The notes under the pieces: model-generated
Told to the model about the DNA's origin: nothing
The model's database searches: none
The model's input: the letters and a program-made list of their open reading frames with translations, nothing else
Shown here: piece by piece, positions 5,210-62,519 of the stretch
Layout: every line of letters starts with the position of its first letter
Numbering within the stretch: the first letter of the stretch is position 1
Made by a program: the position numbers and the translations under genes
Source of the DNA: Candidatus Aminicenantes bacterium
Lineage (GTDB): Bacteria; Acidobacteriota; Aminicenantia; UBA2199
DNA: 64,000 nucleotides
NCBI GenBank assembly: GCA_030639305.1
Contig: DAOWCY010000006.1
Coordinates: 16,563 to 80,562, forward strand
Reading direction: 5' to 3'

Positions 5210-5284
5210 TTTTGAAATCCTCCCCGTTTTTTATTTGTCTCTTTTTTTGAAATTCTTTTCTTCAAGTTTACTCCTTTTATATAT

Positions 5285-5683: not shown

Positions 5684-5704
5684 TTTTACACCTACTTATG
5701 TACT

Positions 5705-36600: not shown

Positions 36601-37022
36601 ATAATATCTTGGATGGATGAAGGCCCTGTATTACCGTGTTTCCCGGCGTATTCGGCGCAGGGCCAATAAAGGCGCTGCAAAAAGTGGCGTCCTTTCGTTA
36701 TTTGTTTTTTTTCCGTGATGGCTTTTAAACGTCCGCCCTGCCGGTCATTGTGCAGCGGCGTCGTGGGCTGCAGGTACAGTTCCGTGATATTTTTTTTAGC
36801 TGCGCCGCCGGAATCGACGATCTGCCAATATCCCTGCACCGGGAGCTGCACTTCGCCCCGGTATTTAGTATAGAACGAACCGGGCTGCCGGAAAAAAAGG
36901 CTTTTTTTTACACTCAGCGGGGCCAGTTTATTCAGCGCCCCGTAAGTTAGGACAAAAAATAATCCCAAAACCGCCGCCCACTTGACATATGATGAAATGT
37001 TTTTTATTTTTTTCTTTTCCAT
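33690..37022 (-). CDS. Large secreted hypothetical protein (1110 aa)
   Basis: N-terminal signal/anchor VKWAAVLGLFFVLTYGALN. A long uninterrupted ORF with no motif I can assign. The antisense ORFs 34147.., 34878.., 35386.., 35554.., 35820.., 35894.. and 36126.. are shadows of it. Confidence 0.5.
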   Translation of the reverse strand: MEKKKIKNISSYVKWAAVLGLFFVLTYGALNKLAPLSVKKSLFFRQPGSFYTKYRGEVQLPVQGYWQIVDSGGAAKKNITELYLQPTTPLHNDRQGGRLKAITEKKQITKGRHFLQRLYWPCAEYAGKHGNTGPSSIQDIIEEKRYKYLQKNLARSPYDSPAGQDIKGPFIFLVPRANFRFQEKDRFVRAKDKETLAFELRPYVDDGKHWVLDTGGSCQRLPVDKKLLKKYKQTIHPVIPKKKEMPVIEPDKHSYTLTAVCKAKPGKPLLLTVENAYSGDTMEIKWDMRRAVQAKEGEHIDIDKQRFATWLPYAGLSQSPLLTTWLTALKEGDDDDFFFSWERWDRRGKSLSVFDILGGRAAVRETLQMQVLAGGANAAGERPADYVIDVESIAGVQVESHPFREMLKKSSGKSGTLPLADVTPQNRFFVYIANPRDILAFLDQGCGFLHRMGTAFTGNGVDYELDKKYPARLGFDRKLLRTLLEAGIIKECALIFPDLFFIDGTDVTVAARLSKPGAIKSLLQLLGKKELAEKRITAFRSKNGANVYWSFWDDLLLIGTNKNEVAKILQLKNSGGKGSLGLSDEFRYMLSKLPLKKSTWGYVYFSDPFIRRLVGPAVKIGQLRRIRARAYMEYLTSRSLLAQLDGRGSPFSIESLIDYGYISRRAAARPAPTVKGEAAVSARDGSPGGEYYFDKDHILHSKTYGTLAHMKPISQAPVQRVSEKEKKAYKGYVDQYSSYWREYFDPIALRLDEAEDGFLEAEIFILPLVDNTIYNSLKGALKSKTDNEPLNIPRLSRDPVLMLSLNLGEEAWRGIVKDGYSLLSRYLPIHPAIFEDFGPGLHLTVHDADPVIALGSGDLLGIFDANFGGSSASGMLSLPVLLSVLTRPCTLIIETRDPGRTLSFLKRSVPALRQRDRWRELQVRVHQVENRDQWVFSFGIAGIIKLRFGVELQDRFLLIRNIPWSHREKITAVDQGSLQGFSLRAYPDACELQLPGLFEAHQDGKLFEAFEGAGHLFPIVLSGSASIEGAAAKHAQLFGFTPRHPGEGHFVWENFHIGSSVYGTVFKQRQPAYREGDREFGLLAGFTFLGVSMQFEDSGLRTRFRWKFKR

Positions 37023-45400: not shown

Positions 45401-45539
45401 ATATAAAGGGGTTGTCTTCGCTAAAGTCTTTAGTAGTTTCCGCCGGGTGGTTAGCTTTTTTGTCCCGCAGGGAACTGCCGCACTTATGGCAGTAAAAATT
45501 ATCGGCAGGGACTTCGGTTTTACATTTCGGACAATTCAT
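42459..45539 (-). CDS. Serine/threonine protein kinase with N-terminal zinc ribbon, single TM and a long C-terminal TPR-repeat region
   Basis: CPKCKTEV...CHKCG zinc ribbon. Kinase subdomains GRGGMGIVYKA, HRDLNPNNIMI, DFGLAK, GTPRYIAPE. Hydrophobic LTAIFIFILLALFGAF. Many TPR-like helices follow. Confidence 0.8.
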   Translation of the reverse strand: MNCPKCKTEVPADNFYCHKCGSSLRDKKANHPAETTKDFSEDNPFIFSPGDDFGSRYKIIEELGRGGMGIVYKAEDKVLNTTAALKTIKPEFLTDQRMISRFKEEIRLAREIAHENVVRIYDFGEVGEVKFISMQYIEGISLKDMLAESGPLPIEKTKAILKQICMGLLAAHKKGIVHRDLNPNNIMIDKGNNVYITDFGLAKSADSTGITHSGALVGTPRYIAPEQWLGEKVDNRVDIYMLGIIIFEMITGEHPFVSETDLGYLHKHLRAKPVFPDKPGKKIPTYLKNIVKKCLEKKRKYRYQCITDLLVDMDSSAIFKGPFLQRFKQNRLPRLTAIFIFILLALFGAFKLAELLKEEEIFPPKKIRVAVLPFTELTGQPLQNNLEFTFFHLLTTDLEQSKFFWVLPENRLLDIFGKIKHKIGSPYTTEVYKKITSEENIDYFLIGSYMTSGGKMRVTVRILNPRSGENLSTFTEDMKEEEAIFSIVDSLTPDIKAAFNIPHDKLEADVDENIETITTSSREALERYSAGKLKFNEEKYEESILLFKEAIELDPGYALVYKEIALAYAVLQKEDQKKKYYDKAMQYRQHLSAKKRLLLEAGFFSNAEETFKKAVSSFKKLLKIYPGNYEANTHFGGLLTLLQDWRRALPYLERAADGINDEQMPYIFLTWTYMAEGRYDKAVAVEKNYHRNFPGKIRPMLYGLVFDIHLIKKAFLLAWEVNEKIAAEDNKLAIFKFNKGKIYLYRGDLEKAEQEFKNMPRDEKDERYYSDRIRNLRLLYLHQGRFAESIKLLKENFAGMKDKEDKLLTAYELVHLYLRLGKPHRALAAIKNYIKLDETPWPVYFLGRKLFYEALAYLKLGQNREAGKTIKELEGNCKKSPFKKDYRYYYLAKSRLERENKNFDRAVSYLKKALSYGPHEYKESFFSNQQAMCLFELALTYYKKGSWEKAGRQFDKITALTLGRFYFGDVYVKSFYYLGKIYQELGREKEALENYKEFLRLWEKADPGQIEIEDAHTQLQRLNNNQ

Positions 45540-49536: not shown

Positions 49537-52500
49537 ATGTTAGGCACAGTTATTTCGCACTACAAAATATTTGAGAAAATCGGCGAAGGTGGCATGGGAG
49601 TCGTTTACAAAGCCGAAGACACCAAGCTTAAACGCACAGTTGCCCTAAAATTCCTCCCCAAAGATTTGACCCGTAACCAGGAAGCCAGGGAACGGTTCCA
49701 GTTGGAAGCCCAGGCAGCCGCCTCATTAAACAACCCCAATATCGTCACCATCCACGAAATAGACGAATATGACGGCCGCGTATATATAGCCATGGAATAC
49801 GTTGAAGGCGACACCCTGAGAGACAGGATGCCCTACACCTGGGAACAGCGCGATACCCCCTTAGAAGATTTCGACGATTTTAAAACCAGGAAAATTTCCC
49901 CCGGCCCCGCAGCGGAACCCGAAGTTAAACCCATGGACATAAACGAGGTGCTCGACATCGCTATCCAGGTTTGCCGGGGGTTGAAAGCAACCCATAAGTT
50001 GGGAATTATCCACCGGGACATTAAACCCCAGAATATAATCCTCAATCCTGAAGGTGTAGTTAAAATATTGGATTTCGGTGTTGCCAAACTCACCCGGGGC
50101 ACCAATGTCACCAAAGAATTCGCCACTGTAGGCACTGTGCACTACATGTCACCCGATCAACTGACCGGCAAAGAGATAGATCAACGCACCGACATCTGGT
50201 CTTTGGGCGTGGTGCTTTATGAAATGCTGACCGCCAACTTACCTTTTAAACAGGACTCCATGCAGTCGATCATGTATTCTATCGTAAATGACAACCCGCT
50301 TCCCCCCTCGGAACTAAGCGACGACGTGCCCCGGCCTTTGGAAAGAATCATATTAAGGTGTTTACGAAAAGAGCAGGAAGATCGCTATCAATCGGTAGAG
50401 TTTCTCCTTAAAGACCTTAAAAAAATATTGGACGGCCTGCGCAAAGATTCCCAGGAATTGAAAATAAAGAAAAAAGCATCGCTCCGCAAAGAGAAGGAAC
50501 GCCGCACTGCCACGGTAATCTCCGCGGAAATCAGCGGGTACGGCGAAATGATGGAAACCTTAGACGCGGAAGAAGTGGCCACCACCATGAGTGATTATTC
50601 CGATATGTTCACTGCCGCCGCCGCAAAATATGAAGGCACTTTAGATAAAACATCAGGCAGTACGTTTACGGTTCTTTTCGGCGTCCCCCTGGCAGTGGAA
50701 AATGGGCCGGTAAAAGCAGTGCAGGCCGCGGTGGAGATGCGTCGTCAATTGGAGCAGTACCTGCGCAGGAGAAAACTCGAGGTTCCGCTAAACATTCGTA
50801 TCGGCGTCAACACAGGGGTGGTGATTGCCGGTGTGATGGGCAAGGACGAGGAAAAATATTCGGTGATCGGCGACGCCGTCAACCTGGCTAATCAATTGAA
50901 AGACGCAGCGCCGAAAGGAAAAATCTATATAGGCGCCCAAACCCAAAAAACTACCAAAAATAACTTCGAATATAAGGAACTCAAACCTATCACCCCAAAA
51001 GGTAAAAAACAGCCTATCACAGCCTATGAGTTTTTATCCGTAAAGTCGAAATCGGATCAGGCCCGCAAAGGCGCTGAACGAATGATCTTTGCCGGGATGG
51101 TGGGCCGGGATAGGGAATTAGACAAATTACAACTGCACCTGCTCAAGCTTGTCAACGGCGAAGGCTCTATTATCAACATTATCGGCGAAGCCGGTATCGG
51201 CAAGTCGCGCTTAATCGGCGAACTCCGTGCTAAAGATGCCTTTAAACGGGTGAAACTCCTGGAAGGCAGGGCATTGTCTATGGGCAAGAACCTCAGTTTT
51301 CACCCCCTGATCGCCATCATCAAAAATTGGGCGCAAATAACTGAGAAAGACACTGCCCAGGAAGCCTACAATAAGCTGGAGAAAACCGTCAAGGATGTCT
51401 ATCCCGAAGCTGTGGGTGAAATTTTCCCCTTTATCGCCACCCTGATGGGCATGAAACTAAGCGGCCAATACGCCGAACGGCTCGAAGGCATCGAAGGAGA
51501 CGCTTTAGAAAAACTGATGAAGAAGAATTTCCGCGAACTCATCATGAAAGCAGCCGAACAACAGCCGCTGGTTTTTTTGATCGAAGACCTGCACTGGGCG
51601 GACATAAGTTCTATCGAATTATTGGAATCCCTTTCCCGGCTGGTGAAAGAGAGTTCCATATTATTCATTAATATTTTCCGTCCCGGCTACGAAGAAACCG
51701 GGGAACGGCTGCTGCTCACCATTAAAGAGAGGTATCCCGGTCTTCATGCCGAAATTTACCTGAAATCTTTAGATGAAAGCGAAACCAAAAAACTCATCGT
51801 CGGTCTTCTAAAAGTGAAGGGCCTGCCGGCCAACATCCTGGGTCTTATCATCAAAAGAACCGGCGGAAATCCCTTTTTTATCGAAGAGATTATTCGTTCT
51901 TTTATCGACGACGGCATCGTGGAACTCAAAAACGGCCATTTTAAAGTGACCGACAAAATCGAAAATGTGGTAATCCCGGAAACCATAAACGATGTGTTGA
52001 TGGGACGCATAGATAAATTAGAGGATGATACGCGGTCGCTGCTGAAAGTTGCCGCCGTCATCGGCAGGAACTTTTTTTATAAAGTCTTAGCCCGGGTGGC
52101 CCTGAATATCGACGAAATAGACGAGCGCATCGAATTTTTAAAAGATACGGAACTCATCCGCGAACGCACCCGCATGGACGAACTGGAATACGTCTTTAAA
52201 AACACCCTGATCCAGGAAGCCGCCTATAGTTCTATCCTGATGAAAAAACGGAAAGAACTCCACGGCAAGGTAGCAACCGCTATAGAGGGAGCTTTTTCAG
52301 AAAAACTGCGTGAATTTTACGGTATGCTGGCGCTGCATTACAGTATGGCCGAAGACCTGGAAAAAGCGGAGAAATACCTCACCAAAGCCGGGGAAGAAGC
52401 ATTAAAAGCCGCTGCATCCAGCGAAGCGCTGCATTTTTACCGGGAAGCATTGAGTCTCTACCTCAAGCAGCATAAGGACGGCGGGGACCCCGACACCGTA

Positions 52501-53895
52501 GCTAACTTTGAAAAAAACATCGCCGCGGCTCTTTATAATAAAGGCGCTATGAAAGAATCCGTAGAGCACTGTAATAAAGCCCTGCGTTTATTGGGAGAGA
52601 AGTTACCCGCCAATAAGTTTGTCGAATCCGTCAAGCTTGCCCTCGATTTATTTAAACTGTTGAAAGGACTCTACTTTCCTCCCAAAAAACCCAAAATAAA
52701 CATGGTACCGCGAGTGAATGATATCATCGAATTGACCATTTTCCGGGGCACAGCCCAGGCAACTTTCGACAATTACCGGATGTTTATGAGTAACGTAGAG
52801 ACACTGGCCAGGCTGCACAAACTCGACCTATCCAAAATCCCCAAAGCACTGCCGTTGTATTTGCAAGCCAGTCTCTTATTTTCTTTTATGGGTTGGTTTA
52901 ATGTCGGTAAGAAGATACTCGACTACCACAAAGTCAAAAAATATGTAGGCACAGGGCACCCGCGGGCCATTTTCGACTATAGGTATGCGGACATAATGCA
53001 TGGTTTTTTATCCGGCGATTGGCGGGAAGAACTCGATCATGGCGATGAGGGCGTAGTCGATATTTGTTTAAAACAAGGCGACACCTTTTCCGCCCTGGTA
53101 TACTTGCTCTGGCGCGGAATCTTTATGGAGGAGAAAGGTAATTTCGAATCGGCGAAAAAGTGTTCCGATCAACTGCTGGAGATGAGCGAAGTGTACGAAA
53201 GCGATTATCCCACCGCCGTAGCCTATATTGTCTCTTCGCGGAGCAAGTTGAAACGCCGGCAGATATCCGACGCTTTAGCCGACACCGAATCCAGTTATTT
53301 TTATTCCGACAGCGTCGATCAGCACCTGATGTGTTTAAATTCTAAAGGGCTGAGAGCCAACGTGCAGATATTGTCAGGCGATATCGAAGGAGCTGAGAAA
53401 TCGTTAGAGGAAGCCGGTGAAATCGCCTCCCGCGAGAAGATGATTGTGGCCTGGCATATCAGCAGTTTTCGTTTAAGCAGTTTTTTGCTCGATCTGTATT
53501 ATTTAAAGAAAAATATAGAAATGGACGATAAACCCTATATCAAGAAATACAGTAAAGCCGCTGCCCGCACCGGCAATTTAGCTTTAAAAAATGTGGCCCA
53601 CTATGCTGCTAACCGCACGGAAGTATACCGCCAGATGGGGAATTATTCCTGGTTGTTGGGCAAGCAGGCCAAAGCCTTTTCCTGGTATACGAAGAGCGGC
53701 GCCGCGGGTGAGAAGATGGGCGCCCGTACCGAGCTTGCCCGCACTTACCGGGAGATCGGTAACCGGCTCCAGGAAGACGGTTGTAAGATCGGGCATTTGA
53801 ATAATCTCGACAGTGAACAATATTTAAAGAAAGCCCGTGCCATGTACGACGCCATCGGCCTTGTTTGGGAATTAGACAGTCACCCCGTGGTTTAG
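49537..53895 (+). CDS. Multidomain signalling protein: Ser/Thr protein kinase, class III adenylate/guanylate cyclase, AAA/STAND ATPase and TPR-like C-terminal region
   Basis: Kinase motifs GEGGMGVVYKA, HRDIKPQNIIL, DFGVAK. Cyclase homology domain (TATVISAEISGY...FTVLFGVP...IGVNTGVVIAGVMG...YSVIGDAVNLANQL). P-loop IIGEAGIGKSRLIGEL. Helical repeats downstream. Confidence 0.8.
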   Translation: MLGTVISHYKIFEKIGEGGMGVVYKAEDTKLKRTVALKFLPKDLTRNQEARERFQLEAQAAASLNNPNIVTIHEIDEYDGRVYIAMEYVEGDTLRDRMPYTWEQRDTPLEDFDDFKTRKISPGPAAEPEVKPMDINEVLDIAIQVCRGLKATHKLGIIHRDIKPQNIILNPEGVVKILDFGVAKLTRGTNVTKEFATVGTVHYMSPDQLTGKEIDQRTDIWSLGVVLYEMLTANLPFKQDSMQSIMYSIVNDNPLPPSELSDDVPRPLERIILRCLRKEQEDRYQSVEFLLKDLKKILDGLRKDSQELKIKKKASLRKEKERRTATVISAEISGYGEMMETLDAEEVATTMSDYSDMFTAAAAKYEGTLDKTSGSTFTVLFGVPLAVENGPVKAVQAAVEMRRQLEQYLRRRKLEVPLNIRIGVNTGVVIAGVMGKDEEKYSVIGDAVNLANQLKDAAPKGKIYIGAQTQKTTKNNFEYKELKPITPKGKKQPITAYEFLSVKSKSDQARKGAERMIFAGMVGRDRELDKLQLHLLKLVNGEGSIINIIGEAGIGKSRLIGELRAKDAFKRVKLLEGRALSMGKNLSFHPLIAIIKNWAQITEKDTAQEAYNKLEKTVKDVYPEAVGEIFPFIATLMGMKLSGQYAERLEGIEGDALEKLMKKNFRELIMKAAEQQPLVFLIEDLHWADISSIELLESLSRLVKESSILFINIFRPGYEETGERLLLTIKERYPGLHAEIYLKSLDESETKKLIVGLLKVKGLPANILGLIIKRTGGNPFFIEEIIRSFIDDGIVELKNGHFKVTDKIENVVIPETINDVLMGRIDKLEDDTRSLLKVAAVIGRNFFYKVLARVALNIDEIDERIEFLKDTELIRERTRMDELEYVFKNTLIQEAAYSSILMKKRKELHGKVATAIEGAFSEKLREFYGMLALHYSMAEDLEKAEKYLTKAGEEALKAAASSEALHFYREALSLYLKQHKDGGDPDTVANFEKNIAAALYNKGAMKESVEHCNKALRLLGEKLPANKFVESVKLALDLFKLLKGLYFPPKKPKINMVPRVNDIIELTIFRGTAQATFDNYRMFMSNVETLARLHKLDLSKIPKALPLYLQASLLFSFMGWFNVGKKILDYHKVKKYVGTGHPRAIFDYRYADIMHGFLSGDWREELDHGDEGVVDICLKQGDTFSALVYLLWRGIFMEEKGNFESAKKCSDQLLEMSEVYESDYPTAVAYIVSSRSKLKRRQISDALADTESSYFYSDSVDQHLMCLNSKGLRANVQILSGDIEGAEKSLEEAGEIASREKMIVAWHISSFRLSSFLLDLYYLKKNIEMDDKPYIKKYSKAAARTGNLALKNVAHYAANRTEVYRQMGNYSWLLGKQAKAFSWYTKSGAAGEKMGARTELARTYREIGNRLQEDGCKIGHLNNLDSEQYLKKARAMYDAIGLVWELDSHPVV

Positions 53896-54072: not shown

Positions 54073-56001
54073 TTATACCCACAGCAGCAGTTCGGTTAGT
54101 TCTTTTTTTCCTAACTGCGCCTTCGGCCCCAAACGCACCTGCACTACCCCTTCTTTGTCTTCAGATACGATGCGGCGCAGTTCGGTGGTCACCACCCGCA
54201 TACGGTCATAAGTAGATAAATCAAAACTGCGCCGCCTATCGAAAGCACTCTTCCTATATCCCGGCGGCGGCGGCAGTTCTACCGCTTCGTTAATATTTCC
54301 GGCAAAATCTTCACGGCTGCTGATTTGCCCGCCTTCGAAGCAGAGCAGGATTCGCTTTTTTTCTTTGCCCACCGACTCCTGCCAAAAGAGTGTCGATTCG
54401 CTCAAAAGAGAAAACCAGCGCGAACGCCGCAGCAGGTGAGCGCCATGGCGGATAATGCCTTCCAGCATCGACGCTGCCGCTTCAGGCGTCCAAACTTTCT
54501 CTTCTTTTTCATCCTCCGCGGAGCTGCCGTTCTCATCTATTTCCGTGCTGTTTTTTCCCTCTTCTTCGAGCCCGGCTGCGGCCAGTTCTTTTAATTTGCG
54601 GCGGCTCAGTTCCTTGCCCAAAAGCAGCACCCTGTTAACAATATTCCCCGGAGGTATCATACTTGTCTGTCCCTGTTTAGCCTCATCAAATTGGCCTGTC
54701 CCCAAAAACTCATCATGCTCCCGGTAAAACAACTCGACCCCCTGCAAAAAAACCTCCAAACCGGGGGCATACTCTTCGGGAATCCCCAATAATTCAGCAC
54801 AAAAATTATTTTTTGCCTCCGGCGGCCTTGCCGGGGGCCAAACTTTTGAAAAAGTTTGAACAAAACTTTTATTTAATTTAGCCTGAAATTGGCCTGTCCC
54901 CTTTTCGAGCAACTCGATAATACCGGCCAGGGATTGCAGCGTTTGTACCGAAACTACCGGGCCAAGACGGTACACCTTATCCACTCCGGGAGCAGATTGT
55001 CGCAAATCCGAAGAAAAATAAAAAAGCCGCCGCTCCCCTTTCCGCAACGCTGCATTATAAGGCGGCGAGTGTTTTTTGATCTCATCAGATTCCAGCAAAG
55101 CAGCTTCTAAAGCCGATCCGGTCACCGTAATATCTAATTTATTGGCCTGGGTCAACATCTCTAAAGTGCGTTCAGAATGTTTGGCGCTCTTACGGAAATA
55201 ACTACCCACCCGCTGCTTCAAAGACGTTGCTTTGCCGATATAAAGCAGGTCGCCGTTGGAACGCAGCATCCGGTAAACACCGGGCAAGCCGGGCAAACCG
55301 CTTCGTTCCTTCGCCGCCATGGGGTAAACCCTTCCGGCGGAACCGGCCCCGGAAACAGCGGGTGGAGCTTCCAGCCATTCCCGCAGTTCCGGCAAGGTGC
55401 GGACGCCCCGCTGCTCTAAAAGTTTAACCGTTTCTTTCCAGGTGAAATTAGTGGCTTCGATGTGAGAGGCGCTGCGGCGCAGTTCAGGCACCGAATACCC
55501 CAAATAACCGGCTGCTGCCCGCAGACCTTTGCGAGGCAATTGAGGCAGCAGGCGTTTGATCACCCGGTGGGTACAAATAATCTCGAAAGGAAAAGGTTTT
55601 CCGGGCGACCATTTTTGATGCATTTCCCTGAGATAAGGTTCCTCGAAACGGGCAAAATGAATCACCGTAGGGCATAGTCCTCTTTTATTGGCTGCCGCTG
55701 TTCTTTTTACCGCCCGAAACAGTTTTTTCCAAGCTTTTTTGGGGGGCAGGCCGCGGGCCGCGTCCTCCGCAGAAATGCCGGTGATGCGTTTTACCGCGGT
55801 AGGGATGATTTCGTCATGCGGCAGTTTGATGAGATAAGAGGTGATTTTTTCGTTATTTTCCCGGCTTGAAGCCCGCACCCTGGCCCAGCCGATTTCCAGC
55901 AGACGCCCTTTTGCCGGGTTAGAACCGGTAGCCTGGCAGTCTACTATTAATACTTCCAGGCTGGATAACAGGTTTTCTTTTTTGAGATTCGATACTCGCA
56001 T
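54073..56001 (-). CDS. DnaQ-like 3'-5' exonuclease domain fused to a GIY-YIG (Cho/UvrC-like) nuclease domain. Carries an in-frame repeat-derived segment.
   Basis: N-terminal LEVLIVDCQATGSNPAKGRLLEIGW (DEDD exonuclease motif I). GIY-YIG GVYRMLRSNGDLLYIGKATSLKQRVGSYF. Residues ...LNKSFVQTFSKVWPPARPPEAKNNF... are the translation (revcomp) of repeat module 54815-54880. Confidence 0.65.
   Translation of the reverse strand: MRVSNLKKENLLSSLEVLIVDCQATGSNPAKGRLLEIGWARVRASSRENNEKITSYLIKLPHDEIIPTAVKRITGISAEDAARGLPPKKAWKKLFRAVKRTAAANKRGLCPTVIHFARFEEPYLREMHQKWSPGKPFPFEIICTHRVIKRLLPQLPRKGLRAAAGYLGYSVPELRRSASHIEATNFTWKETVKLLEQRGVRTLPELREWLEAPPAVSGAGSAGRVYPMAAKERSGLPGLPGVYRMLRSNGDLLYIGKATSLKQRVGSYFRKSAKHSERTLEMLTQANKLDITVTGSALEAALLESDEIKKHSPPYNAALRKGERRLFYFSSDLRQSAPGVDKVYRLGPVVSVQTLQSLAGIIELLEKGTGQFQAKLNKSFVQTFSKVWPPARPPEAKNNFCAELLGIPEEYAPGLEVFLQGVELFYREHDEFLGTGQFDEAKQGQTSMIPPGNIVNRVLLLGKELSRRKLKELAAAGLEEEGKNSTEIDENGSSAEDEKEEKVWTPEAAASMLEGIIRHGAHLLRRSRWFSLLSESTLFWQESVGKEKKRILLCFEGGQISSREDFAGNINEAVELPPPPGYRKSAFDRRRSFDLSTYDRMRVVTTELRRIVSEDKEGVVQVRLGPKAQLGKKELTELLLWV
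54815..54880. repeat. Repeat module (orientation 1) lying in-frame inside CDS 54073..56001
   Basis: GCCTCCGGCGGCCTTGCCGGGGGCCAAACTTTTGAAAAAGTTTGAACAAAACTTTT. Confidence 0.7.
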
Positions 56002-56018: not shown

Positions 56019-56342
56019 TTAGTCTACAATCTTCTCTAATTTATCAGGATTCTGCCGGACATCGAAAACAGTAGCTATAATGACTCTTCTACCTTTTACT
56101 CTATAAATAATTTTATAATTCCCTTCCACAAGATACCTGTATACATCAGGCTTATGTTCTAACAAAGGTTCCTGTTGCCCTATCTCAGTAAAACCTTCTT
56201 CAAGCAGTTCTACTTTATCTAAAATTTTATTAATAACGCGCAGTGCTGCATTTTTAGAAAATTGAGAGAGATATTCAAAAATGTTTCGTAAATCTTTTTT
56301 AGCCGGGTTTGTCCATTTAGTTTTTTTTATGCTTTTTTCCAC
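56019..56342 (-). CDS. Type II toxin-antitoxin system RelE/ParE family toxin
   Basis: 107 aa. ...YRYLVEGNYKIIYRVKGRRVIIATVFDVRQNP, the typical ParE C-terminus. Overlaps the upstream antitoxin ORF by 16 nt. Confidence 0.6.
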   Translation of the reverse strand: MEKSIKKTKWTNPAKKDLRNIFEYLSQFSKNAALRVINKILDKVELLEEGFTEIGQQEPLLEHKPDVYRYLVEGNYKIIYRVKGRRVIIATVFDVRQNPDKLEKIVD

Positions 56343-56620
56343 GTTCTAACTTCTTCTCTCAATTCCTCTTGTGTGATAAAATCACCCCTTTCTGCGGCAC
56401 GCTCAGATTCTTCTATCTTTTCATAAAAAGACTCGAGACTCATTGGTGGCAGTGACTCTTCCGGCTTTTTCTTACTTACGCTTTCTATTAAACCCTTAAT
56501 TCGCTGTAGTATAATTTCATCCTGTATTTTCAGCAGATGTTCGATTAACCAGAGTTTTTCGGCTCTTATATCCATTTTTTCACTCAATCCTATATTAGCA
56601 GATTTTTCTCTATTTTTCAA
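56327..56620 (-). CDS. Putative antitoxin partner of the ParE-like toxin
   Basis: 97 aa, directly upstream of and overlapping the toxin. Its C-terminal region (...MSLESFYEKIEESERAAERGDFITQEELREEV) has a degenerate paralogous copy at 60769-60880. Confidence 0.45.
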   Translation of the reverse strand: MKNREKSANIGLSEKMDIRAEKLWLIEHLLKIQDEIILQRIKGLIESVSKKKPEESLPPMSLESFYEKIEESERAAERGDFITQEELREEVRTWKKA

Positions 56621-56639
56621 ATAAAATTATAATTTTTGC

Positions 56640-56830
56640 CCCATGCCTTCGGCGACCCTGCCGGGGGGGGCGGCGCACCTATGGATTATTTTTTTCTTGC
56701 CTTCGGCGACCCTGCCGGGGGCCAAACTTTTGAAAAAGTTTGAACAAAACTTTTTATAATTTAAAAGCAAAAGCACCAGCCTGCCGCGAAGCGGCTTATT
56801 GCCTCCCCACGCGAGTGGGGCCACGCCGCG
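56640..56830. repeat. Modular repeat element, about 1.5 copies (orientation 1)
   Basis: GCCTTCGGCGACCCTGCCGGGGG appears twice, then CCAAACTTTTGAAAAAGTTTGAACAAAACTTTTTATAATTTAAAAGCAAAAGCACCAGCCTGCCGCGAAGCGGCTTATTGCCTCCCCACGCGAGTGGGG. Confidence 0.8.
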
Positions 56831-56833
56831 GGC

Positions 56834-57991
56834 CTACGGTTGGGGCGGCCTGGGGATAACAACCTTGAACTGCTCTCCCTCGATGTCATTGTAAAACTCG
56901 ATGTCGGGCTGCTCTTTCAGCGCTTTAATTATTCCCGAACCCAATCCCCGGTACGGCAGCATCTTACTGGCAAAAGATGCGATTAACGAATTCCTTATGG
57001 CTGAATTACCATACTTTATGTTTTCAACTGTTAGAGAATTGGGCAGCGCTCCGGGGCTTATTATTTCGATGCGATTATCGAAAATCAATAACCTTATGGA
57101 GGCAACCTTAAAGTAATCCCGGTGAATGAGTGCATTCTGTAATAACTCCTGGAGAGCAACTTTAGAAACTTCCAGGATGCCCAGGCTGTTGAAATCCTGC
57201 CCCTGCTGAGTTTTATGCAAATTTTTTAATAAAAAAGACATCACTTTTTCAAATTGACTGCCGATGTCACCTTCGATATCTTCACTGTCCCTGTATTCCG
57301 TATCAGCCAGGGAATTACCGAAAAAACTGACCGCTTTTATAATAAAAACACGTAAGAACCTCGCCGGTTCTTTGCCGAAAAGAAGCAGCCCGGCCAGGTT
57401 AAGATTGCCGTCCCTGGCTAAATGGAGATTTTCCAGTAATTTCTCCATGGGGATTTCCATCTCGTCAAGTGTTTTCTCATACACTTTCTTGAAATAATTG
57501 TTGAATTTTTCCCGGTCTAAATCGTTAATAGTTGCGCCTTCTACAGGCATATGATCCGCCAATAATTTCCTGCTTTGCTGGAACAAACGCTGCATCTCCT
57601 CCGGCGCGGTAACTTTGCGTTTATCCGAACCGTTTTTGACCCAGTAAATGCCGTCGTTATCGCAGTAAGGCTTATTGACGCCTTCCCGGACATACACAAC
57701 GATCAATTTTTCCCCTTCGATGGTAAAGTTTTCAGTGATTACATTGACGGCCGGCCTGATATTATTGGTAGTGGCATTGGCGATATATTGATTAATCCGG
57801 CCTATTTCCACGGCACTTAGACCTTTTATCCCCCCTCTATCTGTAACCCCGATAATAATTTTCCCGCCCCGGGAATTGGAAAAGGCTGCGATTTCCTCGC
57901 CCAACTTTTTTGCGCCGGTTATTGTCTCTTTAAACTGGTGCCTACTGTCTTCACCGTTGTCTATTATTTCAAGTAATTCTAATTCTTCCAT
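56834..57991 (-). CDS. AlbA_2 (Schlafen-like divergent AAA) plus HATPase_c_4 domain protein (often annotated as an ATP-dependent DNA-binding/transcriptional regulator)
   Basis: N-terminal ...EDSRHQFKETI...EIAAFSNSRGGKIIIGVTDRGGIKGL (AlbA_2 signature). C-terminal ...LQELLQNALIHRDY (HATPase_c_4-like). Its start overlaps the stop of the upstream PHP-ATPase gene by 13 nt. Confidence 0.65.
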   Translation of the reverse strand: MEELELLEIIDNGEDSRHQFKETITGAKKLGEEIAAFSNSRGGKIIIGVTDRGGIKGLSAVEIGRINQYIANATTNNIRPAVNVITENFTIEGEKLIVVYVREGVNKPYCDNDGIYWVKNGSDKRKVTAPEEMQRLFQQSRKLLADHMPVEGATINDLDREKFNNYFKKVYEKTLDEMEIPMEKLLENLHLARDGNLNLAGLLLFGKEPARFLRVFIIKAVSFFGNSLADTEYRDSEDIEGDIGSQFEKVMSFLLKNLHKTQQGQDFNSLGILEVSKVALQELLQNALIHRDYFKVASIRLLIFDNRIEIISPGALPNSLTVENIKYGNSAIRNSLIASFASKMLPYRGLGSGIIKALKEQPDIEFYNDIEGEQFKVVIPRPPQP

Positions 57992-60615
57992 AGTTCGTAT
58001 ATCCTTTTTCTTTTGTCAAATGCCTCTTCGCCGCCTTCCATTACGTTTACGATTTCATCTTGAATGGATTTCCTATCGATGCTGCCTGTTTTTAAGTGGA
58101 TGGAATTTTCCGAATAACTGCATTGTAGAACTTGCTCGCACTCACCCAGCACCGGGATGTTGGGGTTATGCGTGGCGAAAATAAATTGAGTTTGCTGTTT
58201 CAGCTTGGTCAATTCTTTGATAACGTCATTATAAAGAGACTGGTTGTCCAGGTCGTCTTCGGGCTGGTCGATTATAATAATCTCGTGGTCTTTCTTTGCC
58301 AGGATAAAAACAATAAATGCAGACGCCCGCTGACCTAAAGAATGCTTGCTTAATTCCTTTTGATTATAATATAGTTCTACTTTATCCGGTACCCGGAAAG
58401 TTAAAAAATGGTCGCGTATGTCTTCAATACGTTCCTTGAACCGGAGCAGCAAGCTGCCTTCCGTTCCGGTTAGTATTTTTTCCAAAGAGCTATCCTTTTT
58501 AAAAAGATCGTCGTAAATGTCAATGGGGTCCCGGTAAGATTCACAAATTTTTTTTATATGGTTCGCCGACAGGTAGGTGCCTTTAAAATTATTTTTAAAA
58601 AAGTTCTCGAAAGCCTCTTTGTCCTCTTTGAATTCGATTTTTATCTTAATCGATAAATCCTTCTCTTTCAATCGGTCGGTCTCTTCTTTTAATAACAGAA
58701 ATTCCTTGTGCCGGAGGTCTTTCAAGTCCTGAAGGGAATCCTGAAGCCATCTTTTTAATCGGCTGAGTTCTTGCGATTTTTTCTCCAACTGCGATAGAGT
58801 GGCCTTAACGATAGTCAGCCTGTTGTTGAAATTTATAAAATCGTCGGCATTCAATGTGGGCAAATCGATTTTTCGTCTGATTTGGGCAAATTCTTCCTGA
58901 AGTTCGGCATTTAACCGGTGAAATTCCTCTTTGATTTCTTTTAATTTCGTGAGATATTCTTTTCCCTGGTGGGCAAGGCTGTCGATCTCAATGAATTTTT
59001 TATGGAATGCACGCAAGCTTTTTTTTATCTTTTCAAACAGGCTTTCATTGCCGGGACTTTTGTATTCCAAGTAGTGATCGAAACTTCCTTTATGCTCATC
59101 TATAATCCCGGTTAGGTCGTCAACTATTGTTTGTAGAAAATCGATTATCTCTTCGAGTTTATCCCGATCCCGGTTAAAATCAACCTGCCGCTGCAGTTTC
59201 TCGTCAACTTTATGTTCCTTGAATTTTCTTAATTTTTCTTCAATATTACTTTTTTCTTCCAGCAATTCATCTCTCTTCTTTATTTTTTCTTTCAGGATAT
59301 TTATGCTGTTTAAGGTTCTTATAATATCTTGTTCTTTATCGAAAACCTGTTTCCTCACCTCTTTGACTTCATTTTTATCTCCGAAAAACTTTTCGATCAA
59401 ATCCCCGGCAAACCCTTTGCCGCCGATTTCCGACAGGTCCTTCTGGCCGAAATATAGAACATCGACAAGCCCACCGGCTATCTTCATGGTGGGCACCCTA
59501 TTCTCACCGCGAAATATTTGCGGTTTCTCTTTGTGAATTTTTTCAATCCTATATTTTTCTCCATGTCGATCGACGATATTAACTACTATTTTTCCACCGC
59601 TGCCGAGTAGGTTGTTTACTAAATCATCTTTATACTCTTTGTCTTTCGATTGTTTGTCAAATTTGTAGTCCAGGGCGCACCGTATCGCTTCCAGCAGAGT
59701 CGATTTACCGCTGCCCCTTATGCCGATCAAGTTGTTCATATCGGGATTCAAATGAACGGTCTGCCCGTCTAACATCCCGCCGACAAATGAAATATCTTTT
59801 ATGTAACCGTTTTTACGCTTCGGAAAAGATTTCTTAATTCTCGTGGAATTGGCCAGCAGGGCATATTTGACGGCTTCGAAATTAAAATCTCCAATTTTTA
59901 TATAGGTGACTGAATCTCTTTGCCCGATATCATCGAGCGTTTTGGGATCGGAGCCATCCAAAAAGGCAGGTAATTTGTCGCTTCCATAGATTTCGATAAT
60001 CTCTTCCTTTGATTTGTCACTCTCCAGCTTTTGGAAGCCGATTACATGGTCCTTAAACAGGGGTTCACTGTAGATACCTCTCTCCCTGATCCCCCTGGCG
60101 GTTTCCTTGAAGAACCCTTTATCCCGGTCCACATGAGCCAAAATGATAAAATAACCGGCACGGAATTCATTTAACCTTTTAATAGTTTGCATCAATTTCT
60201 CTTCTGTGTTTCCGTCAGGTTTAATCGGTTTTGTTCCGAATGTTCCATTAAGAAATTTTTCGATATTGTTGATGTTTTTCTTATCGTCTACCCACGCTTC
60301 ATAATCGAAAACAACTAAAGTATGAATCCCGTTTTTTCCGTCCCCCACGTTCAATTCTACACCGGGTAATAGGAAAACGTCTCTTTTCCAGGCTTTTTTT
60401 CTCAATTCTTTAAATTCATCGTGGTAAAAACGATTGTGATTGGTGATTACCCCGACATTGATTTTTTGTTCTTCCAGCTTATCTAAAAAACGATTAAAAA
60501 AATCATTGGGATTATCCTCAAATTTTATGCCCAAAGGATCTGAAACTGTATGTAGGTGAAAATCAGCCCTCAGCCATTTGCTGCCGGTCTCGAAAAATTT
60601 AATTGTATTTTTCAT
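57979..60615 (-). CDS. PHP-family phosphoesterase domain fused to a RecF/SMC-like ABC ATPase with a long coiled-coil insert
   Basis: N-terminal RADFHLHTVSD and ...ILAHVDRDKG (PHP metal-binding His motifs). Walker [15 protein letters not shown]. About 350 aa of coiled coil. C-terminal Walker B/D-loop IIIIDQPEDDLD and ATHNPNIP. Confidence 0.7.
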   Translation of the reverse strand: MKNTIKFFETGSKWLRADFHLHTVSDPLGIKFEDNPNDFFNRFLDKLEEQKINVGVITNHNRFYHDEFKELRKKAWKRDVFLLPGVELNVGDGKNGIHTLVVFDYEAWVDDKKNINNIEKFLNGTFGTKPIKPDGNTEEKLMQTIKRLNEFRAGYFIILAHVDRDKGFFKETARGIRERGIYSEPLFKDHVIGFQKLESDKSKEEIIEIYGSDKLPAFLDGSDPKTLDDIGQRDSVTYIKIGDFNFEAVKYALLANSTRIKKSFPKRKNGYIKDISFVGGMLDGQTVHLNPDMNNLIGIRGSGKSTLLEAIRCALDYKFDKQSKDKEYKDDLVNNLLGSGGKIVVNIVDRHGEKYRIEKIHKEKPQIFRGENRVPTMKIAGGLVDVLYFGQKDLSEIGGKGFAGDLIEKFFGDKNEVKEVRKQVFDKEQDIIRTLNSINILKEKIKKRDELLEEKSNIEEKLRKFKEHKVDEKLQRQVDFNRDRDKLEEIIDFLQTIVDDLTGIIDEHKGSFDHYLEYKSPGNESLFEKIKKSLRAFHKKFIEIDSLAHQGKEYLTKLKEIKEEFHRLNAELQEEFAQIRRKIDLPTLNADDFINFNNRLTIVKATLSQLEKKSQELSRLKRWLQDSLQDLKDLRHKEFLLLKEETDRLKEKDLSIKIKIEFKEDKEAFENFFKNNFKGTYLSANHIKKICESYRDPIDIYDDLFKKDSSLEKILTGTEGSLLLRFKERIEDIRDHFLTFRVPDKVELYYNQKELSKHSLGQRASAFIVFILAKKDHEIIIIDQPEDDLDNQSLYNDVIKELTKLKQQTQFIFATHNPNIPVLGECEQVLQCSYSENSIHLKTGSIDRKSIQDEIVNVMEGGEEAFDKRKRIYELWKN

Positions 60616-60744
60616 ATTATTAATATATATACCGAAATGACCTTAAAATCAATACTTTTTATTAATATTATCCGATTTTTTCTAAATCATTGAACGATCC
60701 GCCGTTATTCAGCGGGATTTTGTTTAATTTAAATCCTCTGCTTC

Positions 60745-60880
60745 TATTAATTCTCTTGTTTTCCACGTCTAAACTTTTTCTCGCAATTCCGCTTGTGTAA
60801 TAAAATCACCTCTTTCCAGGGCACACTCGGATTCTTCTATCCTTTCATAAAAGGATTCAAAGTTCATTGGCGGCATAGTA
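60745..60880 (-). pseudogene. Degenerate remnant of an antitoxin gene 3' end plus the first nucleotides of a parE-like gene. About 80% identical over roughly 115 bp to 56325-56445.
   Basis: Direct alignment of TTCCACGTCTAAACTTTTTCTCGCAATTCCGCTTGTGTAATAAAATCACCTCTTTCC...GATTCTTCTATCCTTTCATAAAAGGATTCAAAGTTCATTGG with 56334-56450. The translated remnant ...FESFYERIEESECALERGDFITQAELREKV parallels the 56327..56620 protein. Confidence 0.5.
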
Positions 60881-60908
60881 TATAAAGGTGCGGAATCAGG
60901 CTTCATTT

Positions 60909-61841
60909 TCATTTTATATTGTGAGTCAAAAACGTGGGCCAGGACTTCACATGCCATGGGAGTATCTTTATATTAGACACTTCATAGGCGTAGTAATTTA
61001 TGGGGGCGGTTGAAGCTTTTGATCTCACTAAAACCGCAAATCGAAACTCTTTGGAGGGGAATTCTTTTCTGAAGAAATTAAGGGCCATTTGGGGTCTTTC
61101 ACCGATGGGAGTTGCCCCCTCTACAAGGAGGATTTTTTTCTGATCCTGCTCAATTGTGATGGTTTTATCATATATATGTTCGCGGTTTTTTACTCCATTG
61201 TGCTCTACATCTAAAAAATTCCAATTAAATCCCCTAAATGGTTTTGCCCCCAAATACCCGGCAATTAGCCCACCTATAATGCCCCCGCTTCTACCGATCC
61301 CGATCACTAAATCAGGATTATATGTCTCTTCTTCCATTTGGGAGACAATTCTGCCTATCCCTTTCTCTACATCCGGCCAGGTGAATTCGGATCTGTCTTC
61401 ATCCATGTCGGTGCAATAAACTTCGGTATTTTGGAGCCATTCTTTTATATCTTTCTCAGAATTTTCCCTGTTGTTTTTACTAATATCTATGGTTAAAATA
61501 CCGGTGAGATCTGTTGATATCTTCGGCTTCCCATCCACACATATGATCGCCTTTTTAATTCCTAATCGACCGGCAAATAATCCATACTCAATAAGGACAT
61601 TATCGCGGGGTTGCTTCGTGCTTTCGCTGCGGTTCTCTATAAGATCATCCTCCGAAAAAATAAAAACAGCCGCATCTATATTTTTACTAATCTCAATTAG
61701 TCGGGGAAAAGTGTATTCTCCCGGTGAAAAGAGAGATTTTTTGTCCCACCTGAGAGGTTTGTGACCAGCGGCCTTGATGCTTTTTTCGACCCAGCTTAAC
61801 GCTTCTGAAGATTCGGTTGAACTGCCGATAAATACTATCAT
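60909..61841 (-). CDS. Fusion protein: N-terminal TIR-like nucleotide-binding domain (PF10137 / CAP12-type) and C-terminal type-I phosphoribosyltransferase (PRTase)-like domain
   Basis: N-terminus MIVFIGSSTESSEALSWVEKSIKAAGHKPLRWDK...AVFIFSEDDL...DNVLIEYGLFAGRLG matches the TIR-like 'predicted nucleotide-binding protein' pattern (IFIGSS...FVF.pDD...NVifElGlf.G.LG). C-terminus has DLVIGIGRSGGIIGG and KILLVEGATPIGE, resembling the PRTase PRPP-binding loop. Confidence 0.5.
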   Translation of the reverse strand: MIVFIGSSTESSEALSWVEKSIKAAGHKPLRWDKKSLFSPGEYTFPRLIEISKNIDAAVFIFSEDDLIENRSESTKQPRDNVLIEYGLFAGRLGIKKAIICVDGKPKISTDLTGILTIDISKNNRENSEKDIKEWLQNTEVYCTDMDEDRSEFTWPDVEKGIGRIVSQMEEETYNPDLVIGIGRSGGIIGGLIAGYLGAKPFRGFNWNFLDVEHNGVKNREHIYDKTITIEQDQKKILLVEGATPIGERPQMALNFFRKEFPSKEFRFAVLVRSKASTAPINYYAYEVSNIKILPWHVKSWPTFLTHNIK

Positions 61842-61853
61842 GTTACCTCCTTT

Positions 61854-62195
61854 TCAAAGATGCACGGTCAACTTCCCGGACGCATACTGATGCACCAATG
61901 AACCGATAATTGTTTGATAAGGAATACCGACTTCCGATGCTCTCATTCGCAGCCTTTCCAGGTCTTGCTCCGTTAACCTGATACTGATACGCTTTGTCTT
62001 CGGCGCAGTATTCCAGACCGCCTCTATTAATTCTCTTTTTTTCTTTTCTCCGTCATCTACAGGTATAAGCTCACCCCTTTCATAAGCTTCCAATATTTCT
62101 TTTTCTTCATCGGGATCATCTATCAGTCCTATTTTCCCGCTTTCTAAAGCGTCTATAATAGCTTTTTTATCCTTAAATTTTTTTTTATTTTCCAT
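61854..62195 (-). CDS. brnA: BrnA-type antitoxin (ribbon-helix-helix-containing)
   Basis: 113 aa. ...KTKRISIRLTEQDLERLRMRASEVGIPYQTIIGSLVHQYASGKL matches the BrnA C-terminal signature. Immediately downstream of and overlapping the BrnT-like gene. Confidence 0.55.
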   Translation of the reverse strand: MENKKKFKDKKAIIDALESGKIGLIDDPDEEKEILEAYERGELIPVDDGEKKKRELIEAVWNTAPKTKRISIRLTEQDLERLRMRASEVGIPYQTIIGSLVHQYASGKLTVHL

Positions 62196-62475
62196 TTTTG
62201 TCCTCCTTTTTTAGATATTTCTTTGTGGCCTTCCTGCTCCTAAAAATTGTTTTCAAAAAATATTTTTCTTCGGCTTCTATAAAAGGAACAAGATAAGCAC
62301 TACCTTTGATTTCCACTACCATTATCTCCTGGTGTGGGTACTTTTTTTCATTCGAGTGTTTATACCTATCTAATAATTTTCCTTCTTTCAATGCAGTGAT
62401 GATTTCTTCAGAAGAAATTTCTCTCTTTTTTTTTAGCAGCTCATTTTTTTCTGCATTCCACTTGTATCGTTTCAT
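62185..62475 (-). CDS. brnT: BrnT-type ribonuclease toxin (DUF497)
   Basis: 96 aa. MKRYKWNAEKNELLKKKREISSEEI...MVVEIKGSAYLVPFIEAEEKYFLKTIFRSRKATKKY resembles the DUF497/BrnT pattern (f.WD..Kn..N..KHG.sFeE......RiISARkAt..E...Y). Confidence 0.6.
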   Translation of the reverse strand: MKRYKWNAEKNELLKKKREISSEEIITALKEGKLLDRYKHSNEKKYPHQEIMVVEIKGSAYLVPFIEAEEKYFLKTIFRSRKATKKYLKKEDKNGK

Positions 62476-62519
62476 GCTAATATTATATCCAAAACAGGCA
62501 CAATGTCAATACTTTCGCA

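Follow-up and report, generated by a model that had tools for sequence, protein, structure and literature searches.

We analysed a 64,000-nucleotide (nt) stretch of DNA from Candidatus Aminicenantes bacterium (assembly GCA_030639305.1, contig DAOWCY010000006.1, positions 16,563 to 80,562), referred to here as the window. Our subject is a pair of overlapping genes on its minus strand. The first (57979-60615) encodes an 878-amino-acid protein of the TrlF family, in which a PHP domain precedes an ABC-type ATPase. The second (56834-57991) encodes a 385-amino-acid protein that joins a Schlafen domain to a GHKL-type ATP-binding domain. We consider it very likely that this pair is a defence module, because of its homology to validated defence proteins, its repeated embedding in restriction-modification (RM) operons, its plasmid and Tn7-like context, and a patchy distribution with local insertion polymorphism. 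As a whole, the data are best explained by a mobile two-gene anti-phage module, made of a Ppl-like PHP-ABC protein and a co-translated Schlafen-GHKL protein. We favour this complete picture with some reservation.

The TrlF assignment is well supported. Domains were assigned using hidden Markov models (HMMs) from Pfam, NCBIfam and PADLOC-DB 2.0.0; structures were predicted with AlphaFold2 (AF2) and compared using Foldseek. The protein scores 493.5 bits with the NCBIfam TrlF model NF045780 (cut-off 350), and the alignment spans residues 11-873 and profile positions 2-943 of 944. A preliminary description of the window, made from sequence without database searches, had suggested the name TrlF with some doubt, and the family model bears it out. 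An NCBI entry from a Candidatus Aminicenantes metagenome-assembled genome (MAG) matches the protein with 100% identity. The Prokaryotic Genome Annotation Pipeline (PGAP) also uses the TrlF name for plasmid homologues with 35-39% identity. Matches to related models are partial or weaker. Thus, the NCBIfam Ppl model NF042955 covers only residues 11-659, with 171.1 bits, and misses its equivalog threshold of 1000. The PADLOC Ppl HMM matches residues 10-658 (121 bits, E 1e-35, profile 3-651 of 894) and the sibling family Spaf_1101 scores 184 bits. In full-text literature, "TrlF" was met only in unrelated senses (TRLFS spectroscopy, tumour-related liver failure and a tropolone gene), and a Helicobacter pylori paper on the TerY-P triad makes no mention of it.

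A PHP domain had also been proposed for this protein. The Pfam scan made no such call, reporting only ABC/SMC-type ATPase families (SMC_N, AAA_21 and AAA_23). Instead, the PHP domain is supported by the full-length TrlF model, invariant metal ligands, annotation of homologues and Foldseek. In an alignment of 15 diverse TrlF sequences, the PHP residues H20, H22, H60, E87, H98, H161 and D223 are invariant. Residues 13-89 weakly match a CehA/McbA metallohydrolase, and PF02811 (PHP) is precomputed on two homologues. The ATPase motifs are similarly intact. We found a Walker A box (GIRGSGKS, 298-305), an ABC signature (SLGQRA, 759-764), a Walker B box (IIIDQPEDD, 780-788) and an H-loop (ATHN, 814-817). 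Invariant ABC residues are G298-S305, Q391, S759-R763, D783-D788 and H816. In the AF2 model, a PHP barrel (~13-260) is followed by the N-terminal half of an ABC head (271-395), an antiparallel coiled coil (~402-650) and the C-terminal half of the head (656-877). Foldseek matched the N-terminal third to PHP domains of Pol III alpha, RNase AM and BAD_1165, and the ATPase with its coiled coil to JetC, MukB, SMC, Rad50 and LmuB. Sequence relatives in the PDB were not found by single-sequence search, and a profile search returned only marginal Rad50/SMC stretches. The coiled-coil apex has conserved residues F512, Y518, S520 and N523, and no CxxC zinc hook.

The partner protein has the stand-alone "Schlatpase" architecture (PF04326 plus PF13749). 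SLFN_AlbA_2 covers residues 14-127 (76.8 bits, cut-off 25.3), HATPase_c_4 covers residues 298-361 (49.9 bits), and there is no helix-turn-helix (HTH) domain. No NCBIfam model describes the protein; the PADLOC Schlafen-pAgo model matches residues 28-347. In the PDB, a profile of the partner family matches SLFN14, 13, 12, 11 and 5. The AF2 model has a predicted local distance difference test (pLDDT) score of 89.4. Its best Foldseek match is 3lmm, an AlbA_2-HATPase_c_4-HTH protein, followed by mammalian Schlafens, SAMD9, PDK4 and ATP-binding domains of histidine kinases. The GHKL N-box (E282 and N286) and G2 box (G349, G351 and G353) are invariant in partners. Hence, ATP binding is probably retained. 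Prokaryotic Schlafens (pSlfn) are validated defence effectors, and the "HisKinase" fusion of PF04326 to PF13749 is their commonest architecture, accounting for 34% of pSlfn (PMC13056530). In SLFN-pAgo, ATP binding to the GHKL domain drives tetramerisation, by which the Schlafen nuclease is assembled (preprint 10.64898/2026.05.29.728809).

The Schlafen active site of the partner is unusual. Papers on Schlafens, including PMC13056530, define the catalytic motif as E-x4-(E/D)-x-K, but the partner has E14-x4-Q19-x-K21. Of 74 TrlF-linked partners, 72 have this glutamine, as do 118 of 120 database homologues; among metagenome copies it occurs in 41 of 44 that are paired and 30 of 34 that are solo. 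Profile alignment places Q19 on the second glutamate of SLFN14 (ESTHVEFK) and SLFN13 (ESASIEFK). Two SLFN14 entries, 9jr9 and 9uie, named as an E211A mutant, have alanine at precisely this position (ESTHVAFK). In RzAgo, tRNA cleavage is abolished by one substitution, D32A, in the putative Schlafen active site; judging from residue numbering, D32 would be the same motif position as Q19. At the third acidic position, D51, between 11 and 16% of partner sequences have asparagine. With glutamine at the second catalytic position, nuclease activity of the partner is doubtful. Even so, E14, K21 and a SAFAN-like box (E33, A36, N39, G42 and G43) are invariant or nearly so. By sequence, then, the pocket is under selection yet is not a canonical acidic triad. 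A longer protein illustrates the alternative. In locus L034, a 573-amino-acid Schlafen-GHKL-HTH protein (4128-5849, minus strand) is encoded on the strand opposite TrlF, ~1.1 kb upstream of it, and has the canonical ESKTIEFK. Hence, the glutamine variant is specific to the 385-amino-acid subfamily.

The two genes are associated across a wide range of bacteria. A species-level scan, covering one genome for each of 185,579 species and using a TrlF alignment as the query, confirmed at least 582 relatives. We refer to the best 80 of these as the 80 TrlF loci. They represent more than 15 phyla in total, with members from Bacteroidota, Ignavibacteria, Calditrichota, Planctomycetota, Nitrospirota, Bacillota, Campylobacterota, Gammaproteobacteria, Deltaproteobacteria, Spirochaetota, KSB1, Marinimicrobia, Cloacimonadota, a Candidate Phyla Radiation (CPR) lineage and others. 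In 77 of the 80 loci, a partner homologue (41-59% identical) directly follows TrlF in the same orientation. In two of the three remaining cases the contig ends right after TrlF. The co-occurrence on which the original proposal of a two-gene unit depended is therefore widespread. In the window, the start of the partner gene overlaps the TrlF stop by 13 nt. Across loci, the start-stop offset is -13 nt in 31, -22 in 17, -19 in 9 and -4 in 4. Such offsets mark the genes as a translationally coupled operon. We conclude that the TrlF clade has repeatedly acquired a Schlafen gene, and kept it in a fixed overlapping arrangement. It is likely that the two proteins are functionally coupled, and they may interact physically. 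TerY, PP2C or a kinase triad, which the preliminary description had tentatively linked to the TrlF name, did not adjoin TrlF in any of the 80 loci.

The association is less strict from the perspective of the partner. For the reciprocal comparison, we used 80 metagenome loci, fetched with the partner alignment, and four look-ups of the closest database homologues. TrlF was directly upstream in 44 loci and missing from 34 that had at least 600 nt of upstream sequence; six were undecidable. The closest relatives of the window partner, with 60-67% identity, are solo copies. Full-length TrlF is found in 212 plasmid records, and the partner subfamily in 49, nearly all adjoining TrlF. Solo TrlF genes are carried by plasmids of Listeria, Citrobacter and Serratia, and by many from E. 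coli; in pMAR7, the gene is between ccdAB and vapB. Since TrlF and its partner each occur alone, neither strictly needs the other, and each is probably functional by itself. Among 2.9 million viral contigs, a proper TrlF occurs in only two, one of them with the partner, and the only GenBank phage records with TrlF are two unannotated "Listeria phage" entries.

In many genomes the pair is built into an RM operon. Among the 80 TrlF loci, a type III Mod methyltransferase is encoded directly upstream of the pair in 16, and a type III Res protein (ResIII plus RE_endonuc) immediately follows the partner in 15. Twelve loci have both and 19 have at least one, giving the order Mod-TrlF-Schlafen-Res. 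A further 14 loci have a small XRE-type HTH gene immediately upstream. Other recurrent neighbours of the pair are type I HsdR and HsdM, Eco57I-type enzymes and SNF2 helicases. In a Prevotellaceae MAG (L070), a solo TrlF is situated between putAbiC and Septu-like AAA_15/21 and HNH genes.

Type I embedding is seen in the IncC plasmid pNDM-1_Dok01, where the gene order is HTH-hsdR-TrlF-Schlafen-hsdS-AAA_13-hsdM, and neighbours overlap by 4-19 nt. Here, the partner is annotated "RNA-binding domain-containing protein". The operon adjoins Tn7-like transposition genes, and a Klebsiella plasmid has the same arrangement. Furthermore, the 3.8-kb pair is present, with at least 99% identity, in 38 of 5426 complete E. 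coli genomes (0.7%). These copies are mostly chromosomal and always between hsdR and hsdS. The AAA_13 gene of pNDM-1_Dok01 (L172, 11435-12550), between hsdS and hsdM, encodes a 371-amino-acid ATPase of a family that we take to include PrrC/RloC-type proteins. Hence, two different candidate defence modules are embedded in one hsd operon.

In the window, the pair is not RM-embedded and is part of an insertion. It is flanked by genes for a fusion of TIR and phosphoribosyltransferase (PRTase) domains (60909-61841) and for a DEDDh exonuclease joined to a GIY-YIG domain (54073-56001), which are 4907 nt apart. In related contigs (L168, L169 and L170), orthologues of these two flanking genes directly adjoin. 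Thus, in two independent relatives, the TIR-PRTase gene (68-70% identical) is followed by 139-180 nt and then the GIY-YIG orthologue (46-47%); the window DEDDh-GIY-YIG protein is 47% identical to that encoded at L168:7093-8871. Since relatives join the flanking genes directly, the 4.9 kb containing the pair and a ParE module is an insertion. The flanks are resident, and not part of the pair. Within the interval are a decayed antitoxin fragment, TrlF, the Schlafen gene, a copy of a dispersed repeat and an antitoxin-ParE module. The G+C content is 0.38-0.42 from 56 to 63 kb (the insertion, TIR-PRTase gene and a BrnTA-like pair) and 0.52 on the GIY-YIG side.

How might the pair work? Ppl is a single-stranded DNA 3'-5' exonuclease that is inhibited by nucleoside triphosphates (NTPs) on its PHP and NTPase domains, and activated by 3'-OH ends (review PMC12904381). 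By analogy, this mechanism is the best available model for TrlF. We envisage that the module landed, with the ParE module, between the two resident genes. TrlF would dimerise via its ABC heads and, as Ppl reportedly does, might monitor DNA ends or the level of nucleotides. Its PHP domain, acting as a 3'-5' exonuclease like that of Ppl, would degrade invading DNA. The Schlafen-GHKL protein, made in fixed proportion with TrlF, could be an ATP-gated accessory that binds nucleic acid. It may sense for, or regulate, TrlF; alternatively, it may be a second, non-canonical, RNA-directed effector. When present in type I or type III RM operons, the pair would provide a second line of defence if restriction fails. 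We favour TrlF as the DNA-degrading engine because the PHP metal site is complete and the Schlafen site is non-canonical. Even so, the division into a main nuclease, TrlF, and an accessory Schlafen protein is put forward tentatively.

Several observations weigh against a dedicated two-gene module. Only ~56% of decidable partner loci (44 of 78) have TrlF, both genes occur alone, and most plasmids with a full-length TrlF have no partner. In a neighbour-joining tree built from 153 partner sequences, at least 19 switches between the paired and solo states are required (for shuffled labels the mean is 31 and the minimum 24). Nor did we see a motif that separates solo from paired TrlF at either the N- or C-terminus; all motifs are shared. 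The partner active site reads E-Q-D/N rather than an acidic triad. Two Schlafen-"HisKinase" systems, which may or may not belong to this subfamily, were not protective in the panel of Perez Taboada et al. (PMC13056530). Finally, the TrlF AF2 model is only of moderate confidence (pLDDT 72), and in the literature that we searched neither a TrlF nor this Schlafen subfamily is the subject of an experiment.

The main rival to a module driven by the TrlF nuclease is abortive infection of the PARIS or PrrC type. Logically, TrlF could be a sensor or scaffold that holds the Schlafen-GHKL protein inactive. Once a phage cue appeared (for example DNA ends, nucleotide depletion or an anti-restriction protein), tRNA would be cleaved by the Schlafen domain and translation would stop. 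This is plausible if glutamine is tolerated in the active site, and the near-invariance of E14, K21 and the SAFAN-like box suggests that the pocket matters. Embedding in type I RM operons also mirrors the classical arrangement of PrrC. Note too that the combination of an ABC ATPase and a separate nuclease recurs in Gabija, Septu, PARIS, Lamassu and HEC-01 to HEC-03 (preprint 10.1101/2024.01.29.577857). Furthermore, characterised prokaryotic Schlafens, including the Schlafen-GHKL module of SLFN-pAgo, do cleave tRNA (PMC13056530; 10.64898/2026.05.29.728809). However, the second catalytic glutamate is replaced in almost all partners, at exactly the position altered in the SLFN14 mutant entries, and the D32A change in RzAgo, if equivalent, abolishes the proposed activity. 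The third acidic position varies too, and a pure sensor has no need for the fully conserved PHP metal site of TrlF. On balance, we regard this explanation as unlikely.

Two further explanations concern whether the genes form a defence unit at all. They might be independent single-gene defences, merely side by side in defence hot spots. Solo copies of each in many genomes and plasmids, and the interleaving of paired and solo states on the partner tree, are consistent with this. Conversely, order and strand are fixed, overlaps of 4-22 nt occur in nearly all 77 paired loci, and the pair moves as a unit into both type I and type III RM operons. Random co-location in islands gives no such constant overlapping arrangement, so mere adjacency is quite improbable. 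Alternatively, the pair could be a housekeeping DNA-repair ATPase of the SbcC, Rad50 or RecN kind, with a COG2865-type transcription regulator. The TrlF fold does resemble SMC/Rad50 heads with a coiled coil, and homologues are annotated "chromosome segregation protein" or "ATP-dependent DNA helicase RecG". Yet the NCBIfam Rad50 and SMC models give only 27.8 and 17.3 bits, against cut-offs of 700 and 567, respectively. An Mre11/SbcD-type partner is found neither in the window nor among the recurrent neighbour clusters of the 80 TrlF loci. In addition, the distribution is patchy, carriage on plasmids and a Tn7-like element is apparent, related contigs do not have the pair at the orthologous site, and the 385-amino-acid partner is without the HTH of longer COG2865-type proteins. 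A housekeeping role is largely refuted, and we assign it a very low probability.

A more ambitious version of the favoured two-gene module can be formulated, and we consider it possible though somewhat doubtful. The pair would then be a distinct and widespread two-component immune system, in which the rewired glutamine-variant Schlafen is an ATP-gated nucleic-acid sensor or switch, or an RNase of unusual chemistry, for a Ppl-like SMC-PHP exonuclease. RM-embedded forms, including those of IncC NDM-1 plasmids and of 0.7% of complete E. coli genomes, would guard type I and type III enzymes against phage anti-restriction. If so, a common two-gene system would be added to the catalogue of bacterial immunity, with a TrlF relative in at least 582 of 185,579 species genomes and the pair on many plasmids. 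Ppl-type PHP-ATPase nucleases and prokaryotic Schlafens, now separate lines of work, would become linked. There would also be a natural test of a Schlafen domain in which glutamine replaces the second catalytic glutamate. Because a cassette with at least 99% identity occurs in pNDM-1_Dok01 and 38 complete E. coli genomes, these ideas are directly testable in E. coli, where the cassette may influence the phage susceptibility of clinically relevant strains. The unit goes unrecognised by annotation tools, which label the ATPase by itself "Ppl" or "AAA ATPase" and call the partner a "RecG helicase" or "RNA-binding protein".

The preliminary description had placed the pair in a defence island. All nine open reading frames that it named are present on the minus strand, at the positions it gave. 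The defence context is upheld by the occurrence of the pair in RM operons elsewhere, but the island is composite and its other genes are not linked to the pair. The TIR-PRTase, BrnT, BrnA and DEDDh-GIY-YIG genes occur in none of the 80 TrlF loci, and ParE in one; we rejected them as parts of a single system. The BrnTA-like and ParE modules, and the TIR-PRTase, are thus independent neighbours. Outside this region, the window carries genes for housekeeping and signalling functions (MutL, CoaE, a Rex-like protein, CNNM, radical SAM enzymes and kinase-TPR proteins). Hence, the defence-like patch is small, and within ordinary chromosome.

The TIR-PRTase is a 310-amino-acid protein with a TIR domain of the CAP12/PycTIR type (residues 3-121, 93 bits) and a PRTase-like domain (residues 155-302; Pfam Pribosyltran, 31.7 bits). 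In a collection of 5.8 billion proteins, it has 12 full-length homologues (54-100% identical); other matches share one domain only. The TIR glutamate motif expected for PF10137, NVLIEYG, is conserved in all 12. PADLOC models for TIR effectors of CBASS and Pycsar score 60-102 bits, and NCBIfam Cap12 models 76 and 67 bits (cut-off 450), in each case for the TIR part only. Neither a CD-NTase nor a Pycsar cyclase is beside the gene, whose neighbours in the window are BrnA and the antitoxin remnant; in relatives they are a DEAD_2 helicase or Trp dioxygenase gene, and the GIY-YIG gene. The only cyclase domain in the window is in a 1452-amino-acid Ser/Thr kinase-guanylate cyclase-AAA_16-TPR protein (49537-53895), encoded on the opposite strand to the TIR gene, and this is not a Pycsar-like arrangement. 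A 1026-amino-acid Ser/Thr kinase-TPR protein (42459-45539) is also encoded near the island, and both large kinase proteins are probably ordinary signalling proteins. Adjacency of the TIR-PRTase and GIY-YIG genes in relatives could reflect joint function or mere synteny in close relatives; in L171, the TIR-PRTase gene instead adjoins Septu-like HNH and AAA_15/21 genes. The phosphoribosyl pyrophosphate (PRPP) binding loop, at residues ~236-246, is VEGATPIGERP in the window and VEGATTTG(Q/K/E)TP in nine of 11 other full-length homologues; the outliers are P0248 (VKGATTAGQTP) and P0252 (VLGATTNGERP). Since the window loop deviates, its PRTase site may be weakened.

Two toxin-antitoxin modules are nearby. 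At one end of the block, a CopG/BrnA-type antitoxin gene (61854-62195, minus strand) overlaps a toxin gene (62185-62475, minus strand) by 11 nt. The order, overlap and CopG_antitoxin score (32.2 bits, cut-off 28) fit the brnT-brnA pair proposed for this position. The toxin itself is no more than BrnT-like, since Pfam BrnT_toxin (24.9 bits, cut-off 34.5) and DUF4258 (22.5 bits) are both sub-threshold. The NCBIfam BrnA model gives the antitoxin 18.4 bits (cut-off 60). The BrnTA-like pair is also absent from related contigs. Our scan for promoters and terminators gave counts not above chance, and the sole standout was a sigma-70 consensus, TTGACA-16-TATAAT (62482-62509, minus strand, 12/12 match), 7 nt upstream of the brnT start. 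With a perfect promoter at this distance, the transcript of the toxin-antitoxin pair would be leaderless or have a very short leader. It possibly also serves the TIR-PRTase gene, 13 nt downstream of brnA.

The second module is a ParE/RelE-family toxin gene (56019-56342, minus strand; Pfam ParE_toxin 52.7 bits, cut-off 23; TIGR02385 37 bits) with an antitoxin gene directly upstream (56327-56620, minus strand), which overlaps it by 16 nt. This is a ParDE-type arrangement, as had been supposed. The antitoxin has no match in Pfam, NCBIfam or PADLOC, and its likely true start is an ATG at 56575. The predicted antitoxin remnant is also genuine. Briefly, positions 60759-60875 (minus strand) are a decayed 3' fragment of a ParD-like antitoxin gene, and a 117-nt direct repeat, 82% identical to 56335-56451. 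It has a premature TAG where the intact copy has AGA. We considered whether these flanking repeats are a target-site duplication and rejected this, since 117 nt is too long, 82% identity too diverged, and one copy is a decayed antitoxin gene. The repeats look like two related toxin-antitoxin loci, one of them decayed.

Between the Schlafen and antitoxin genes, at 56640-56820, is the repeat element noted earlier, which is indeed dispersed (families D2, D4, I1, I4 and I5). Its core, GGCCCCCGGCAGGGYCGCCGRAGGCA, has 12 copies in the 64-kb window, with none expected from shuffles. These are at 8896, 14371, 16291, 26768, 33545, 37092, 45665, 48625, 54027, 54814, 56644 and 56698. Longer units, of 65-80 nt, form inverted pairs, and there is no Rfam match. 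The palindromic repeat is probably a genome-specific family of repetitive extragenic palindromic (REP) or miniature inverted-repeat transposable (MITE) elements. One copy (54806-54878) is in-frame within the DEDDh-GIY-YIG gene, where it encodes a ~20-amino-acid insert (…QTFSKVWPPARPPEAKNN…) across which the reading frame stays open; the insert is absent from the orthologue at L168:7093-8871. That gene, on the minus strand, has Pfam RNase_T and GIY-YIG matches and an NCBIfam PRK07883-type match. Elsewhere in the window, a 1110-amino-acid open reading frame (33690-37022, minus strand) has no Pfam family at E <= 1e-5, and searches for RNA genes in the 64 kb returned no Rfam family and no tRNA.

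Finally, we compared the pair with known systems. As had been suspected, it does not correspond to a named system in PADLOC-DB 2.0.0, from which it is absent as a pair and where the ATPase gives only a sub-family-level Ppl match. The closest relative of TrlF in layout is the E. coli single-gene system Ppl (Gao_Ppl), which likewise has an N-terminal PHP domain, then an ABC/SMC-like ATPase with a coiled coil. Sequence homology is clear, but TrlF is far below the Ppl equivalog cut-off and constitutes a separate family. Furthermore, unlike Ppl, the TrlF clade has an overlapping Schlafen-GHKL gene in 77 of 80 loci. The partner has the same PF04326 plus PF13749 layout as pSlfn and the SLFN-pAgo "Schlatpase". 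It differs from them in its E-x4-Q-x-K motif, in having no fused Argonaute, Ig-like, DUF262 or HTH domain, and in being coupled to a separate PHP-ABC protein, of which the Schlafen papers that we searched make no mention.

Other systems share only the general plan. PARIS (AriA ABC ATPase and AriB TOPRIM tRNase), Gabija, Septu and HEC-01 to HEC-03 have the same two-gene design of ATPase plus nuclease. The PARIS effector is described as cleaving tRNA, with an anti-restriction protein as the trigger. AriA, GajA and PtuA resemble TrlF only over short stretches at the Walker A box, the signature or the C-terminal ABC part (20-45 bits). Moreover, the partner is a Schlafen-GHKL protein rather than a TOPRIM, HNH or PIN protein, and TrlF has a PHP nuclease domain of its own. 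In PrrC and RloC, an ABC-type ATPase is linked to an RNA-targeting module inside an hsd operon, as a backup when restriction is countered. The layout hsdR-TrlF-Schlafen-hsdS-AAA_13-hsdM is similar, but there is no sequence relationship of PrrC/RloC to TrlF or its partner, and the only PrrC/RloC-type domain nearby belongs to AAA_13, a separate gene of that operon. The pair also differs in splitting function over two proteins, with a PHP domain in addition, in having no CxxC zinc hook, and in that the window copy is outside any RM operon. Lamassu and Wadjet provide the best structural matches to the TrlF ATPase and coiled coil (JetC, E 8e-9; LmuB, E 7e-6). This likeness is at the level of fold only (11-13% identity); partners of the kleisin/KITE or LmuA/LmuC kinds do not accompany TrlF, and those systems do not have a PHP fusion. 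The papers that we searched on Schlafen defence, SLFN-pAgo, embedded defences, modularity networks, BREX, serine recombinases and nuclease-NTPases contained no mention of PHP or TrlF together with Schlafen. Hence, both protein families are already known by name, as is the design that combines an ABC ATPase with a nuclease. The TrlF-Schlafen pairing, the placement of this pair within type I and type III RM operons, and the glutamine-variant Schlafen subfamily appear not to have been described before, and it is these that set the pair apart from the systems above.

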